Part shown: piece by piece, positions 31,131 through 36,399 of the stretch | Numbering within the stretch: the stretch's first letter is position 1 | How the letters are laid out: every line of letters begins with the position of its first letter | Origin: Bdellovibrionota bacterium | GTDB taxonomy: Bacteria > Bdellovibrionota_C > UBA2361 > OMII01 | DNA: 64,000 nt | Reading direction: 5' to 3' | NCBI GenBank assembly: GCA_044337105.1 | Contig: JBIIOE010000004.1 | Span: 3,172-67,171, forward strand | Made by a program: the position numbers and the translations under genes | The notes under the pieces: model-generated | The model's input: the letters and a program-made list of their open reading frames with translations, nothing else | Databases searched by the model: none | Told to the model about the DNA's origin: nothing

Positions 31131-32744
31131 TCAGGCAGCAACGGTTTTGCGCCATTTGCCGAAATCCGGGTAACCGACTCGTTCTAGCAGTTTCTCGTCT
31201 ACCCCGTGTTCGACCGCTTCACTGAATCGAGCCGCGGAGATATAAGCACGTAACTTGGCCAAGGCTCCCTCGACCTCTTGCCTCAAAGCGTCCAGCTCGA
31301 CACTCGACATAGCTGCCTTTACAGCGTCTAATTTTCTCTTACGTTCGGTGAGGTAGCGAATCTCCAAATCGCGTCGAACGCTCTCCGTGGCTTCGGACGA
31401 AGCCCGCGGTTCAGACGGCCGCAGTTCGGATGGTCGGTCTTCGGTACGTCTATCAAAGTCCATCCGAGCCTGAGGGCTCTCCCGTTCGGCTCTGCGTGAC
31501 TTCTCTCCAGGCAGGGTAAAGTCGAATGGCTTTTCGACGGCCCGGTAAAGAAAGCCTTGTGGGTTTTTGCTAACGAGATGGCTGCCCGATGCAACGAGCT
31601 TGTCGAAGTGCGCGATGATTGCGGCTCGGCGCTCCGCCGCTTCCCTACCCTGCCCTGCTACAAGCTTGTGTGCTTGCTTTTCGGCGATCCCTCGTTGGAC
31701 TAGCGCCTCGATTAGTGGGTCGCTCACGCCTTCAACTTCGAACGAGGTTCGCGAGCCGCTGAAACTGTCGGTTTTTGTTTCTGTGGCACTCTGCTGCTGC
31801 GAACCCAATGTTTTGCGCGCTGGTTGAGCAGCCTGCAGTACGATCTCCGTCGACTTTCCTTTGCCGATGAAGTCAAAGCTGCTCAACATTCCGCGCTGCT
31901 TGAGCTCGTCAAGCGCAGGTTCGAGCTGTTGTCGCAGTGAACTCGCATAGACGTAGTTACGGGAGATGCCGATCTTCTCGTGAGCCAATGTGAAGAGATT
32001 CATCTGGATTCGAGAGCGATACCAGAAATGCTTGTCGAGATAGCGATAGAGCCGTTTAGAGACAGCGCTCTCGAGGTCGAGGTAGAAATCTAGATCGAGT
32101 TTCTTTATGAATCCGACTTGAAAGGAGGTGAAAAGAACTTCGCTCCAGGTAAAGAAGCTCGGTCGTGTGTCGCGGCCATCGTTGATTTCGTATTCGTCGA
32201 TTATGCCGAAATTGCGGGTGCTGTGGAGCTTGTTCTCATTGTCGTAAAATGCGTTCGTAGCTTTGATACGAACACCACTCAAGCGATCGAGAGCGTTTTG
32301 CAATCGCGTATAGCTTCGACCCTCTGTAGTCCAGCGAAGGATCTTCAAAAGTTCGTAACGAGTGAAGTACACCTTCCGCTGGCGCAATCCATCATCCGCC
32401 GTGAGCTTGAGCAACCCGAGCAAAACCTCATCATCCGAGGAGGTCGGCAATCCGAATTTGTCTGCGCCAGTGATGATCCACTTGCGGTTGACGAGGTCGC
32501 CGTTCTTGCCCTTCACGGCATCGGTAAATTCGAGGGTCTTTATCGAAGGATCTGCGCGCTTGGAGAGGACCGTGAGGGGAAATTCGGCGAGATTCATCTC
32601 GTCGCGCGAGATTTTTACTGAACTGTGCTGGGTGTTCAATGAAACAGGCATAGCGGACACGTCGGCAGTCACGTCGGATGTGTCCGCCGTGAGAGCGCCA
32701 AGGCCCGTCATTGGAAACATATCGCTGTCAGTAGTATTCGCCAT
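31131..32744 (-). CDS. repA: Plasmid-type replication initiator (Replication initiator protein A / RPA family) with a long charged C-terminal extension
   Basis: EMNLAEFPLTVLSKR, GLPTSSDDEVLLGLLKL, VYFTRYELLKILRW..GRSYTRLQNALDRLSGVRIKATN follow the conserved RPA-family blocks. The gene is divergent from parAB across an iteron-rich spacer. Confidence 0.75.
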   Translation of the reverse strand: MANTTDSDMFPMTGLGALTADTSDVTADVSAMPVSLNTQHSSVKISRDEMNLAEFPLTVLSKRADPSIKTLEFTDAVKGKNGDLVNRKWIITGADKFGLPTSSDDEVLLGLLKLTADDGLRQRKVYFTRYELLKILRWTTEGRSYTRLQNALDRLSGVRIKATNAFYDNENKLHSTRNFGIIDEYEINDGRDTRPSFFTWSEVLFTSFQVGFIKKLDLDFYLDLESAVSKRLYRYLDKHFWYRSRIQMNLFTLAHEKIGISRNYVYASSLRQQLEPALDELKQRGMLSSFDFIGKGKSTEIVLQAAQPARKTLGSQQQSATETKTDSFSGSRTSFEVEGVSDPLIEALVQRGIAEKQAHKLVAGQGREAAERRAAIIAHFDKLVASGSHLVSKNPQGFLYRAVEKPFDFTLPGEKSRRAERESPQARMDFDRRTEDRPSELRPSEPRASSEATESVRRDLEIRYLTERKRKLDAVKAAMSSVELDALRQEVEGALAKLRAYISAARFSEAVEHGVDEKLLERVGYPDFGKWRKTVAA

Positions 32745-33351
32745 GCGTAACTATCCTGAGTCGTGAGAGCGTACACCTCAAAGACTGCTAAGCTCAGTTG
32801 AGCTCCGGTGTATTGGTACAATTCGGTCGAATCGCAGCCAACAATTCCACCTCCCAAATTTTCGACACCATAGCTTAGTTTTAGTTAGTTAAACAATCTT
32901 TTCTTAAGAAACATGTTACTAGATGAGCGGAAAAAAAACTAAGGAATTTTAACGCGTTACAATTGATTTTTTATTTCAGATCACGACCATTTCGTGCTCT
33001 CTTCACGAGCCTCTTTTATCTCACTTCCCGAACCTCTCATGGTCATATCACGAGCCTCCTTCTCTCGTGTCACGATGGTTCTTACCTCAAGGCACGAATC
33101 GGCAGCGCGCGAGCCGTTTGAAAGTCGCGGTAGCGACGCAAAGAAGGAGAAAATGTAAGACTATCGTGACTTGAGATCTAGTGAGCTCCTCTTTTTTTTA
33201 TCTCAGTTCACGAACTAGCGGAGATATTCCTGCCTTTACGGGCGATTTTCAATCTACCCCAAATTTTCATCGTGAATTGACTTAAGTATAGATTTTACAA
33301 GCGAACTCTGCGAGATTCCTTACCTCAGTTCACGATGCCGGAGGAACCACA
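32745..33351. promoter_or_regulatory. Putative vegetative replication origin (iterons plus AT-rich block) and divergent repA/parA promoters
   Basis: There are nine exact TCACGA/TCGTGA hexamers (32761, 32981, 33003, 33048, 33070, 33164, 33208, 33270, 33330) and three one-off variants. Longer repeats are CTCAGTTCACGA x2 and TCACGAGCCTC x2. The AT-rich block is at 32871-32979. Confidence 0.6.
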
Positions 33352-35026: not shown

Positions 35027-35043
35027 GCTTCTAATATCGTGAA

Positions 35044-36399
35044 TTGACAATAAAATGGACGCTGGATGCAGTGTCCCACGGTGGGACAGTGAATAAGGTT
35101 CGCATTGGTCTTGGGTATCTAAACTCGCTAGCACCCTGGAATGGAAGGGGTGGTTTCGCTCTACAGCCCATAAAGGAGCTTCTCGCTCGCCTTGGGGATC
35201 CTCAAGACACTCTTCCGATCTTGCATATAGCTGGAACGAACGGAAAGGGGTCGGTCTCGGCTACATTGGGCTCTATTTTGGCCCAATCGGGCTATCGAGT
35301 GGGCCTCAATACCTCTCCGCACCTCGAATCTCTTAATGAACGGGTTGTTGTCGACGGGTGGCCAGTGGCTGACGAGGTGTTGGGCGAGCTCGCCTATGAT
35401 TTGCGCTCGGCAGCACATAAGGGAGGCGACCAGATATCCTTTCACGAGGCGATAACGGCACTTTCCTTCCTGTGCTTTCGAGAGCTGCAGGTGGAGTGGG
35501 GAGTTGTAGAGGTGGGATTAGGGGGGCGTCTGGATGCTTCTAATGTCATTTCACGACCCGCCGCGACTGCCATCGTTACTATCGACTACGACCATCAGCA
35601 CATTCTAGGTAGCACTCTTGCAGAGATAGCTGCTGAGAAGGCCGGCATTGTTAAGCCCGGATCGCCGTTAATTAGTGGTCTGCTGCCGCTTGAAGCTCTC
35701 ACGGTAGTAAAGCGCGCTGCTAAAAACGTACCGCACCGCCAGTTCGGACAGGACTACGATGTTCGTCGGATTGAGGGGCAGGGTAGACGATTCGGGTATT
35801 GGAATAAGTTTTGTCCGTCTGGGCAGAATGTAGCCTTTGAATTCGAGTCGCCGCTCTTTGGTGTTCACCAAGGCCACAATATGGCAGTCGCAGCTACTGT
35901 CGCATTGGAGGTTGGGTTGGCTCCTGATGCGTGCAAGCGTGGCATAGAGGGCGTGTTCTGGCCGGGGAGGCTCGAAGAGTTTGAGGTTCTAGGTCGCTCT
36001 TTTGTGCTCGACGCAGCTCATAACCCCGCAGGAATACTTGCATTCATCTCTTTCTTACGGGCACGCAATGCGAGTGGTATCGATCTGACCTTTGGAGCGC
36101 TCGATACCAAGAATTGGGAGCTTATGTTGAAGCAGCTCCTACCCTTTATCAAAACCCTACGCCTCCTTCAGCCTGAATCTGAGCGGGCTCTTCCGGAGGA
36201 GCGTATTGCTGACTACGTTACGGCATCGGGAAACGACATAAGGATAATTCGATACGGTCTGGATTACGAAGAGTGTGTACGCGACCTACTTGCCGATAGC
36301 GGGGCACCCCCAGCCTACGTAACTGGCTCGATGTATATGCTAGGAAGACTCAGAAAGATGCTCTCGCTACCAAAGAGGCCGCTGTGGACGAGAAGCTAG
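35044..36399 (+). CDS. folC: Bifunctional folylpolyglutamate synthase / dihydrofolate synthase
   Basis: HIAGTNGKGS is the P-loop. The Mur-ligase-like body has AAHNPAG. The true start may be GTG 35089, because the TTG 35044 extension overlaps the parS-like sites. Confidence 0.85.
   Translation: MTIKWTLDAVSHGGTVNKVRIGLGYLNSLAPWNGRGGFALQPIKELLARLGDPQDTLPILHIAGTNGKGSVSATLGSILAQSGYRVGLNTSPHLESLNERVVVDGWPVADEVLGELAYDLRSAAHKGGDQISFHEAITALSFLCFRELQVEWGVVEVGLGGRLDASNVISRPAATAIVTIDYDHQHILGSTLAEIAAEKAGIVKPGSPLISGLLPLEALTVVKRAAKNVPHRQFGQDYDVRRIEGQGRRFGYWNKFCPSGQNVAFEFESPLFGVHQGHNMAVAATVALEVGLAPDACKRGIEGVFWPGRLEEFEVLGRSFVLDAAHNPAGILAFISFLRARNASGIDLTFGALDTKNWELMLKQLLPFIKTLRLLQPESERALPEERIADYVTASGNDIRIIRYGLDYEECVRDLLADSGAPPAYVTGSMYMLGRLRKMLSLPKRPLWTRS
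35072..35088. promoter_or_regulatory. Second parS-like palindrome TGTCCCACGGTGGGACA
   Basis: Same arms as 35010-35026 with the complementary central base, 62 bp downstream of the first site. Confidence 0.6.

Follow-up and report, generated by a model that had tools for sequence, protein, structure and literature searches.

A plasmid-type module of a Rep protein, iterons, and a ParABS system, which lies among housekeeping genes of a Bdellovibrionota bacterium, behaves as a replication origin. This is supported by its synteny throughout the clade, by purifying selection, and by a switch of the GC3 skew at the spacer between its divergent genes that does not depend on gene orientation. The best explanation is that the module serves as the active origin and as the centromere of a large replicon that carries core genes and is passed on vertically. 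An ancient chromid or a second chromosome is the most probable identity of this replicon, at about even odds.

Organization of the Module

The window, i.e., the whole stretch of 64 kb that was analyzed, had previously been inspected from its letters alone. This sequence-only reading had placed a leftward repA gene and rightward parA and parB genes on the two sides of an iteron-rich spacer, and this arrangement was borne out at the same coordinates by Pfam, TIGRFAM, and iteron matches. The module and the sites next to it comprise the following features:

31131-32744, minus strand: repA, RPA-family iteron-type replication initiator, 537 aa (Pfam RPA)
32745-33351: intergenic spacer between the divergent repA and parA-parB genes, 607 bp
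32745-32871, no strand: repA-proximal leader, presumed promoter region, weakly conserved, where the spacers of relatives diverge
32872-32938, no strand: ultra-conserved AT-rich block of 67 nt, AGCTTAGTTTTAGTTAGTTAAACAATC...AACATGTTAC.AG.TGAGCGG followed by an A-run
32968-33099, plus strand: six direct iterons, lineage consensus TTTTTATCTCAATTCACGATA (position weight matrix, PWM)
33162-33182 (minus strand) and 33195-33215 (plus strand): inverted pair of strong iterons, PWM scores 20.1 and 25.5
33268-33288 (minus strand) and 33317-33337 (plus strand): inverted pair of strong iterons, PWM scores 24.9 and 24.6
33352-34146, plus strand: parA, Soj-type Walker ATPase, 264 aa (AAA_31, 203 bits; CbiA match)
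34133-35008, plus strand: parB, Spo0J-type, 291 aa (ParB_N, HTH_ParB, TIGR00180 with 162 bits)
35010-35026: parS-like 17-bp palindrome 1, TGTCCCACCGTGGGACA
35035-35055, minus strand: lone strong iteron between the two palindromes, PWM score 24.7
35072-35088: parS-like 17-bp palindrome 2, TGTCCCACGGTGGGACA, overlapping the folC start
35538-35558, plus strand: further iteron-like site within folC, PWM score 20.4, matches TCATTTCACGA

The proposed housekeeping flanks were also recovered by profile matches, namely argS (TIGR00456, 402 bits) on one side and folC (TIGR01499), next to an FPP-type polyprenyl synthase, on the other. The 64 kb additionally contain typA, rsgA, and the gene for S18, and the density of universal translation genes in the window matches that of an average chromosome. 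In other sublineages, trpS is found near the origin. Gene orientation diverges as had been described, with five of five genes on the minus strand followed by nine of ten on the plus strand. Equally in line with the earlier description, profile searches of the Pfam/TIGRFAM type found no integrase or conjugation genes within about 10 kb of the module, and no att-like repeats, integration scars, or recombinase genes were found to flank it.

The Initiator and the Spacer

In profile searches, residues 47-266 of RepA match the Pfam family RPA (PF10134) with 67.4 bits at a cut-off of 27, and weaker matches to TrfA and Rep3_N exist. RPA-family initiators are expected to contain winged-helix DNA-binding domains. 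A comparison with PDB sequences gave no match. The AF2 model has a mean pLDDT of 63 and is confident only in the second half of the core, and the sole Foldseek match was a weak one to domains 2-3 of RctB (E 1.8e-3, low TM-score). The nearest plasmid Reps retrieved by homolog search are about 33% identical and are annotated as "replication initiator protein A." Orthologs in 58 species represented by metagenome-assembled genomes (MAGs) are 49-86% identical, and repA is full-length in all loci. Its dN/dS ratio across relatives is 0.066, compared to 0.07 for folC, 0.04 for argS, and 0.015 for parA, and purifying selection on repA is as strong as that on folC.

A sigma-70 consensus was sought in the repA-proximal leader (32745-32871), and no match was found. 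The adjoining AT-rich block (68-78% AT) is a candidate for the DNA unwinding element or for a protein-binding core of the origin. With up to three mismatches its core, TAGTTAAACAATC, was found in 48 of 52 spacers, two of which appear spurious on inspection, and it is near-identical in about 28 species despite saturated synonymous sites. The GC content of the spacers is about 10 points below that of their own loci.

The iteron motif TCANNTCACGA occurs nine times in the window versus 0.75 expected occurrences, and none of 100 shuffled sequences reached nine. Six of the nine matches are in the spacer, and two others lie at 35.0-35.6 kb. A PWM that had been trained solely on the sequences of relatives and was then applied to the window placed the starts of the direct iterons at 32968, 32990, 33013, 33035, 33057, and 33079, i.e., with a spacing of 22-23 bp. 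The 22-bp phasing (22, 44/45, 67) is also present in most relatives. Helically phased direct repeats beside repA, by which iterons of RPA-family initiators are recognized, are therefore present. Inverted pairs equivalent to that at 33162-33215 exist in relatives, and the pair at 33268-33337 brackets a conserved stretch immediately upstream of parA, where relatives share the conserved block CATCGTGAATTGACTTAAGTATAGATTTTAC...CCTTACCTCAGTTCACGA. This second pair is presumed to be a RepA operator over the parAB promoter. An iteron in the gap between parB and folC was found in 18 loci.

The Partition System

The N-terminus of ParA, NQKGGVGKTT, contains the deviant Walker A motif KGGxGK[ST]. ParA is 68-96% identical across the clade and about 50% identical to the ParA 8ray (189 bits) and to Thermus Soj 1wcv (184 bits), but only 30% identical to the ParA proteins of the nearest RPA plasmids. 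The type of ParA was considered as a discriminator between chromid and chromosome, and was rejected because plasmids also carry Soj-type ParA proteins at about 50% identity. The best PDB matches of ParB are the chromosomal ParB/Spo0J entries 7bnk, 1vz0, and 6sdk. Its GERRxR CTP-binding motif (SGERRFRAS) aligns with the equivalent motif in 7bnk and 1vz0, while the recognition helix is KSAVQRSLEIL versus RSTVANALRLL in 7bnk, 1vz0, and 6sdk.

The two parS-like palindromes that had been noticed downstream of parB proved to be the only two matches to the consensus TGTCCCAC[C/G]GTGGGACA in the 64 kb, even when three mismatches were allowed (0.13 expected). In 42 loci, the palindrome is present in one to three copies directly 3' of parB, and it is absent from the rest of the loci. 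From this position and this conservation we infer that ParB is paired with the palindromes, which would thus be its loading sites (putative parS). For the canonical 16-bp parS, the 64 kb contain one match with three mismatches, which is the level expected by chance. The combination of an altered parS and an altered ParB recognition helix is as expected if a second ParABS system must differ from the chromosomal one.

Conservation in Uncultured Freshwater Relatives

The host clade consists of uncultured freshwater bacteria labeled Bdellovibrionota, some members being assigned to Oligoflexia. Of the 58 species-level MAGs of Bdellovibrionota, about 50 have the same order of repA, divergent parA-parB, palindromes, folC, and polyprenyl synthase, and the GC content of the locus ranges from 32 to 60% in relatives. 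The module, together with the same housekeeping neighbors on the parAB side, has been inherited vertically across about 58 species. Of the proposed order argS-repA-parAB-folC, the module with folC beside it was retained in every relative, whereas the argS side varies. The survey yielded no relative in which argS is adjacent to folC in the absence of the module or in which the module is bounded by att sites. A recent integration or a mobile island was rejected on the basis of the parAB-side synteny in about 50 species and of the lack of an integrase or att-like repeat. A recent integration of a plasmid backbone is thus excluded, and the origin of a chromid, one of the two simplest interpretations offered before, is still preferred over a non-DnaA origin on the main chromosome.

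The longest contig with the locus has 709 kb, and therefore the replicon is large; a metagenome scan and a second search with a distant RepA yielded contigs of at most 377 kb.

Strand Composition

In 30 of the 34 loci with more than 5 kb on each side, the spacer is the point from which the GC skew diverges. To separate this from gene orientation, GC3 skew was split by orientation. For genes that are head-on to the fork, the repA arm has a positive value in 37 of 38 loci and the parAB arm a negative one in 17 of 22, and the explanation of the skew as a by-product of gene orientation was thereby rejected. A change of sign at the spacer regardless of gene orientation indicates an active bidirectional origin. 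The skew inflection for which a test near 33 kb had been suggested was thus found clade-wide, but in the window itself the change is lopsided, with a GC3 skew of about 0 on the repA arm and of +0.09 to +0.10 on the parAB arm. A symmetric sign change is seen only clade-wide.

DnaA and the Hallmarks of oriC

The earlier statement that the window contains neither dnaA nor dnaN holds true. A tblastn search with the E. coli DnaA sequence found no DnaA in the window or in the loci L001-L059 (about 1 Mb in total), and no member of the DnaN family was found in Pfam scans of window ORFs of at least 150 aa. Hence, no dnaA was found within 10 kb of the origin in 58 species or within about 30 kb in the window. 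The other usual neighbors of oriC, i.e., gyrB, rpmH-rnpA, and mnmG-rsmG, are likewise absent from the window, which also has no cluster of DnaA boxes. Most iteron plasmids of proteobacteria need the DnaA of the host and have a DnaA box in their origin. A DnaA box (TTATCCACA, up to one mismatch) was found in 12 of 52 spacers without a conserved position, and in the spacer of the window there is none.

Nature of the Replicon

The best reading is that the module belongs to an ancient chromid or second chromosome, which we regard as about an even bet. The layout of Rep, iterons, and an adjoining parAB operon is that of plasmids and chromids, and the nearest Reps are encoded on Planctomycete plasmids beside parAB. 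In Rhodobacterales, RepA-type replicons belong to the most frequent extrachromosomal types, and the chromids defined in that group all have a parAB operon, are vertically stable, and lack transfer genes (PMC9025767). The core genes, a conservation at the level of the genus or deeper (58 species), the lack of dnaA in the vicinity and of dnaN in the window, and the missing canonical parS together with the altered recognition helix fit the same reading. The Soj-type ParA is no argument against it, since ParA proteins of this type, at about 50% identity, also occur on real plasmids. It is weakened by the fact that neither a second replicon nor a dnaA gene was seen from these genomes, and the translation-gene density of the window and the trpS gene near the origin in sublineages are unusual for chromids. 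Further points against it are that the spacers lack a conserved DnaA box, unlike most proteobacterial iteron plasmids, that one contig with the locus reaches 709 kb, i.e., the replicon is large, and that there is almost no skew on the repA arm in this window. Under this reading, the replicon would be separate from a DnaA-driven chromosome; that it is "secondary" is suggested by prior expectation and by the unusual parS.

Several of the same observations could be explained if the module were the sole origin of the main chromosome, DnaA and oriC having been lost or sidelined, and an RPA-type initiator residing beside the chromosome's own diverged Soj/Spo0J-parS system. The core-gene density is that of a main chromosome, with argS, typA, rsgA, and S18 in 64 kb and trpS near the origin in relatives. 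ParA is much closer to chromosomal Soj (about 50% identity) than to the ParA of the nearest RPA plasmids (30%), and conserved DnaA boxes are missing. In nearly all species the orientation-independent skew minimum is exactly at the spacer, and the locus is present in every detected clade member, including the contig of 709 kb. To our knowledge, DnaA is nearly universal in free-living bacteria, and therefore the prior for a sole origin of this kind is very low. In addition, the absence of dnaA from these genomes is not among the observations, dnaN, gyrB, rpmH-rnpA, and mnmG-rsmG are not in the window, and it is not evident why a chromosome without a co-resident replicon should have given up the canonical parS. 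Taken together, a sole origin is unlikely. In its full form, an entire clade of flagellated, free-living Bdellovibrionota from freshwater would be devoid of a functional DnaA/oriC, would replicate its main chromosome from a captured plasmid-type RepA/iteron origin, and would segregate it with a ParB re-specified to read a 17-bp parS; this is slightly less likely still.

The core-gene context and the skew would fit just as well if an ancient chromid or plasmid had fused with or integrated into the main chromosome, so that the RepA origin fires as a second origin alongside or instead of oriC, with dnaA elsewhere. That such two-origin or takeover states can exist is illustrated by chromosome fusions in Vibrio and by the integrative suppression known from E. 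coli. Two active origins on one molecule that are stable over 58 species with GC contents of 32-60% would be unprecedented, and neither integration scars nor att repeats nor recombinase genes are found beside the module. We consider this possibility to be as unlikely as a sole origin. By far the least probable explanation is that an integrated plasmid backbone has left an inactive relic, with genes kept by chance or for a non-replication function: the plasmid-like character of the module and the lack of a dnaA gene in its vicinity would fit, but repA is full-length in all loci with a dN/dS of 0.066, iteron phasing, AT-rich block, and palindromes are conserved at the nucleotide level versus saturated synonymous sites, and strand composition switches at the spacer, so that this explanation was rejected and is close to refuted.

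Under the preferred reading of a chromid or second chromosome, the anatomy and the knowledge about iteron plasmids suggest the following mechanism. RepA monomers would bind to the six 22-bp-phased iterons at 32968-33099, melt the adjoining conserved AT-rich block at 32872-32938, and recruit the host helicase, and forks would depart in both directions. RepA may also occupy the inverted pairs in front of parA and the single iteron that separates the palindromes, and this would couple the amount of initiator to the expression of parAB or to the partition complex. The two 17-bp palindromes directly past parB would be the loading sites of ParB, which has the GERRxR CTP motif, and the Soj-type ParA would segregate the copies.

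Comparison With Known Systems

The RepA-type plasmids and chromids of Rhodobacterales have a replicase of the same Pfam family (RPA) in a low-copy module with a parAB operon. They belong to another phylum and their sequences are distant, their records being among weak tblastn matches with less than 40% identity. Conservation is far deeper in the case described here (58 species), parS is an odd-length palindrome of 17 bp, and the separate replicon is putative.

Chromosome 2 of Vibrio cholerae (ori2/RctB/parAB2) shares an initiator that is specific to the lineage and has a plasmid-like DNA-binding core, short repeats arrayed beside an AT-rich region, its own parAB-parS at the origin, essential genes, and conservation throughout a family-level clade. 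In contrast, RepA has no sequence homology to RctB, the weak match to domains 2-3 being a structural one, and none of the 11/12-mers, 39-mers, Dam methylation, and crtS trigger of the Vibrio origin was seen here. Vibrio ParA2 is of the long plasmid type, whereas the ParA described here is short and Soj-like.

The nearest characterized sequences are RPA Reps of Isosphaeraceae (Planctomycetota) plasmids, e.g., Singulisphaera pSINAC01 and Aquisphaera pOJF2_1, which are of similar size (about 500 aa) and 32-35% identical to RepA over 70-85% of the length. They also have parA or parAB alongside rep. Unlike the replicon described here, these plasmids are small and accessory (25-130 kb), their parAB genes are convergent instead of divergent with rep, and their ParA is 30% identical.

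Classical iteron plasmids (pPS10, RK2/TrfA, F/RepE, R6K/pi) are similar with respect to a Rep with TrfA and Rep3_N Pfam similarity and to direct, helically phased iterons of about 22 bp beside an AT-rich region. Their inverted iteron copies are operators, and here the inverted iterons are found at the promoter of parA instead of that of rep. Their origins hold DnaA boxes, none of which is conserved here, and the replicon described here, with its core genes, spans at least 709 kb.

With canonical chromosomal ParABS systems (Soj/Spo0J, 16-bp parS TGTTNCACGTGAAACA) the module shares the ParA and ParB types, the GERRxR motif, and palindromes beside parB near the origin. The palindrome differs in its length of 17 bp with an extra central base and in the replacement of TTT/AAA by CCC/GGG, and the recognition helix is altered.

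Implications and Additional Observations

If the replicon is a chromid, then a multipartite genome would, as far as known, be proposed here for the first time in Bdellovibrionota; a literature search for chromids or DnaA loss in Bdellovibrionota, or for the 17-bp palindrome, found nothing. Like Vibrio chromosome 2, it would also rank among the known secondary replicons with the deepest conservation. If it is the main chromosome, a free-living lineage would have exchanged the supposedly universal DnaA/oriC for another system. Outside reduced symbionts and some cyanobacteria, this would be, as far as known, the first case in which the bacterial chromosomal initiator was replaced in nature. This bears on the long-standing question whether a plasmid initiator can take over an essential replicon for evolutionary time. 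The module offers a defined initiator, an iteron, an AT-rich core, and a putative new parS specificity, all of which can be tested in vitro.

The window gave no tRNA or Rfam matches, and the loci of relatives contain few tRNAs and no rRNA motifs. What had looked like the end of an rRNA gene beyond the left edge of the window turned out to be none. Beyond one edge of the window the sequence runs into a repeat about 3 kb out.

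The replication-partition module and its neighbours

The module between housekeeping genes consists of an initiator gene and a parA-parB gene pair on opposite strands, separated by a 607-bp spacer within a window of 54% GC. The genes, which had been described from the sequence alone, were borne out by Pfam and TIGR matches, and the gene orientation around them was likewise confirmed.

Features of the module
31131-32744, minus strand: repA, 537 aa, Pfam RPA (PF10134), 67 bits versus a cut-off of 27
32968, 32990, 33013, 33035, 33057 and 33079 (starts): six direct iterons, position weight matrix, spacing 22-23 bp, i.e., two helical turns
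33162(-)/33195(+) and 33268(-)/33317(+): four strong iterons, position weight matrix, two inverted pairs just upstream of parA
33352-34146, plus strand: parA, Soj-type ParA, 264 aa
34133-35008, plus strand: parB, Spo0J-type, 291 aa, with ParB_N, HTH_ParB and TIGR00180
35010-35026, 3' of parB: palindrome 1, 17 bp, TGTCCCACCGTGGGACA
35072-35088, 3' of parB: palindrome 2, 17 bp, TGTCCCACGGTGGGACA

The Pfam scan also revealed weaker matches of the repA product to TrfA and Rep3_N. The module is flanked by argS (TIGR00456), folC (TIGR01499) and a gene for an FPP-type polyprenyl synthase. No integrase, conjugation or phage gene was found near the module, in agreement with the sequence-only reading, and the window yielded neither tRNA nor Rfam matches. 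The structure model of RepA is only moderately confident (pLDDT 63), and its single non-trivial structural match is to domains 2-3 of RctB (E 1.8e-3), the initiator of Vibrio chromosome 2. This match is compatible with a plasmid-Rep-like fold of RepA, without proving it.

Iterons and a conserved AT-rich block in the spacer

The position weight matrix for the iterons was built exclusively from the spacers of relatives and then applied to the window. The clade consensus is TTTTTATCTCAATTCACGATA, and the phasing of 22 bp recurs in most loci. For the simple motif TCANNTCACGA, the window contains nine copies versus 0.75 expected, and nine copies are not reached in any shuffle; six copies are in the spacer, one is in folC, and one (35037-35047) is situated exactly between the two palindromes. 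The iteron array is separated from repA by a stretch of 68-78% AT. Within it, a 67-nt block (32872-32938) hardly differs among about 28 species, is recognizable in nearly all of 52 spacers, and is better conserved than any other non-coding sequence of the locus. This block does not correspond to a DnaA box, and no conserved DnaA box was found in the spacers. In some relatives (loci L005, L008 and L010, also L004 and L012) the part of the spacer that separates the iteron array from the parA-proximal iterons contains four tandem 10-bp CGTGGAAC repeats or a GTGGGAC motif, which resembles half of the 17-bp palindrome; in the window this position is occupied by a GC-rich stretch (33085-33145).

The arrangement suggests a mechanism in which RepA monomers bound to the phased iterons would open the adjacent AT-rich block, whereupon RepA would load the host helicase. 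RepA bound to the iteron between the palindromes and to the inverted pairs located upstream of parA might couple the initiator level to the expression of the partition genes or to the partition complex. The palindromes would be the loading sites of ParB, which contains the GERRxR motif, and ParA would move the copies apart.

An odd-length palindrome and an altered ParB

The two parS-like palindromes that had been noted after parB are the sole matches in the 64 kb with up to three mismatches (0.13 expected). In 42 loci one to three copies of the 17-bp palindrome follow parB directly, and the loci contain none elsewhere. The canonical chromosomal parS is nearly universal; its 16-bp sequence is absent from the window. 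In contrast to chromosomal ParABS systems, the palindrome has an odd length and the recognition helix of ParB is altered (KSAVQRSLEIL; the chromosomal ParBs 7bnk and 1vz0 have RSTVANALRLL).

An ancient, vertically inherited locus

When GTDB was scanned with one genome per species, RepA orthologs with 49-86% identity were detected in 58 MAGs, all uncultured, mostly from freshwater, and labelled Bdellovibrionota, Oligoflexia or 'Deltaproteobacteria', on contigs of up to 709 kb. Among the 1.84 billion cluster representatives of a census, the ortholog group comprises about 35 clusters above 360 bits, and a gap separates it from related Reps at about 255 bits. The dN/dS value of repA (0.066) is the same as that of folC (0.07) and close to that of argS (0.04); that of parA is 0.015.

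The order of repA and the divergent parA-parB-folC-polyprenyl synthase genes is kept in about 50 of these loci, which have a GC content of 32-60%. However, the adjacency of argS and repA is confined to the window and its three closest relatives, while most others have an SLT transglycosylase gene and two flagellin genes on the repA side. Of the order argS-repA-parAB-folC, for which a survey of relatives had been suggested, the module and the folC side are thus constant and the argS side is variable. A variable housekeeping flank next to a constant module is the opposite of an insertion, and the locus is ancient and vertically inherited. One MAG, UWPOB_DELTA1 (JAFLCA01), contains two different repA loci (L027 and L055; 60% and 67% identical to the query), either because two populations were binned together or because a single cell has two such replicons.

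Strand composition diverges from the spacer

Of the 34 loci with more than 5 kb on each side, 30 have a raw GC skew that diverges from the spacer. Because the genes also diverge from the spacer, co-oriented and head-on genes were separated and the skew of their third codon positions was computed anew. The head-on genes of the repA arm have a positive skew in 37 of 38 loci (pooled +0.075), and those of the parAB arm a negative one in 17 of 22 (pooled -0.05). The sign therefore holds in head-on genes, so that a transcription effect is rejected and the switch is linked to replication; it indicates bidirectional replication from the spacer.

The skew change for which a test near 33 kb had been suggested is thus seen across the relatives' loci. 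In the window itself, the skew of the parAB arm is +0.09 to +0.10 irrespective of gene orientation, and that of the repA arm is about zero. This flat skew may have resulted from a sublineage-specific rearrangement. Two tandem flagellin genes and an SLT transglycosylase gene are found at 8373-11252 of the window, 20 kb from repA, whereas in most relatives this block is directly downstream of repA (e.g., 11692-14639 in locus L037 and 11463-14143 in L054). This displacement makes the intervening argS-to-fliG block (about 11-31 kb) the rearranged segment. The otherwise neutral left arm also contains an island of strongly positive GC skew (13000-16000, +0.10), possibly acquired or inverted DNA, which includes a gene for a DUF4143/AAA_14 ATPase (14045-15193) and is accompanied by poorly coding DNA at 11.3-14 kb.

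Chromid or main chromosome

We give an even chance to the reading that the locus is the origin of a chromid or second chromosome. A Rep protein, iterons and a neighbouring parAB operon represent the replication-partition layout of plasmids and chromids, and the closest Reps, about 33% identical, are encoded on Isosphaeraceae plasmids beside parA or parAB. In Rhodobacterales, the RepA type is one of the most frequent among extrachromosomal replicons, and all chromids defined there carry a parAB operon (PMC9025767). The altered ParB helix and the odd-length palindrome are expected where two ParABS systems share a cell, and thus also count for a secondary replicon. So does the lack of the usual origin neighbours: tblastn of the window and the relatives' loci detected no dnaA near the locus in any species, Pfam scans of the window's ORFs detected no DnaN, and the window contains none of the other genes that usually adjoin an origin. 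The absence of dnaA and dnaN from the window had been observed at the outset.

Several points favour the main chromosome. The genes argS, typA, rsgA and an S18 gene lie within the 64-kb window, trpS is beside the origin in other sublineages, the density of universal genes is about the genome average, which is atypical of chromids, and the spacers lack a conserved DnaA box. ParA also shares about 50% identity with chromosomal Soj, as against just 30% with its counterpart on the closest RPA plasmids, but this argument is weak, since ParAs that are equally Soj-like occur on some real plasmids. Weighed against the very low prior for a loss of DnaA, these points leave a sole, RepA-driven chromosome rather unlikely, and a main chromosome with two origins is also doubtful. 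A replacement of DnaA would be the more radical reading, and its probability is low. That the locus is a mere relic, e.g., of an old integrated plasmid, is highly improbable.

Literature searches yielded no account of a chromid in Bdellovibrionota, of a loss of DnaA in the phylum, or of the 17-bp palindrome. On present evidence the locus is a new, deeply conserved case of a known class, i.e., plasmid-type origins on essential replicons. As judged from sequence, the putative 17-bp parS, the lack of DnaA boxes and the predicted initiator sites inside the partition locus are unusual.

Additional observations in and around the window

A region of low coding density and high AT skew (45800-49300) contains an ORF with an HTH_38 helix-turn-helix domain (46629-47231) as well as TTATCCACA (47687), which is a perfect DnaA box, and, 60 bp from it, TTATCCATA (47746, minus strand). 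DnaA-box-like sites are below the chance count window-wide, and therefore this pair is probably fortuitous. Some 3 kb to the left of the window, contigs of three independent assemblies (L094, L095 and L096, positions 1-700) end at one repeat-rich stretch with CACGTTCACGT repeats and an ORF fragment similar to a 23S-rRNA intervening-sequence protein; Rfam detected no rRNA there, and a dispersed repeat probably breaks these assemblies.

A stand-alone gene (24914-25483, plus strand) encodes an N-terminal RRM RNA-binding domain fused to ribosomal protein S18 (Pfam RRM_1 and Ribosomal_S18; TIGR00165, 85 bits versus a cut-off of 39), and 12 relatives have orthologs close to repA. Within the first 9 kb of the parAB arm a single gene is head-on (37214-37690, minus strand); it encodes a methylguanine-DNA methyltransferase-like DNA-binding domain and overlaps the ends of both neighbouring ORFs. 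An ankyrin-repeat protein (38599-39570, plus strand), unusual in a bacterial housekeeping neighbourhood, is shared by 18 relatives at a distance of a few kb from the origin.
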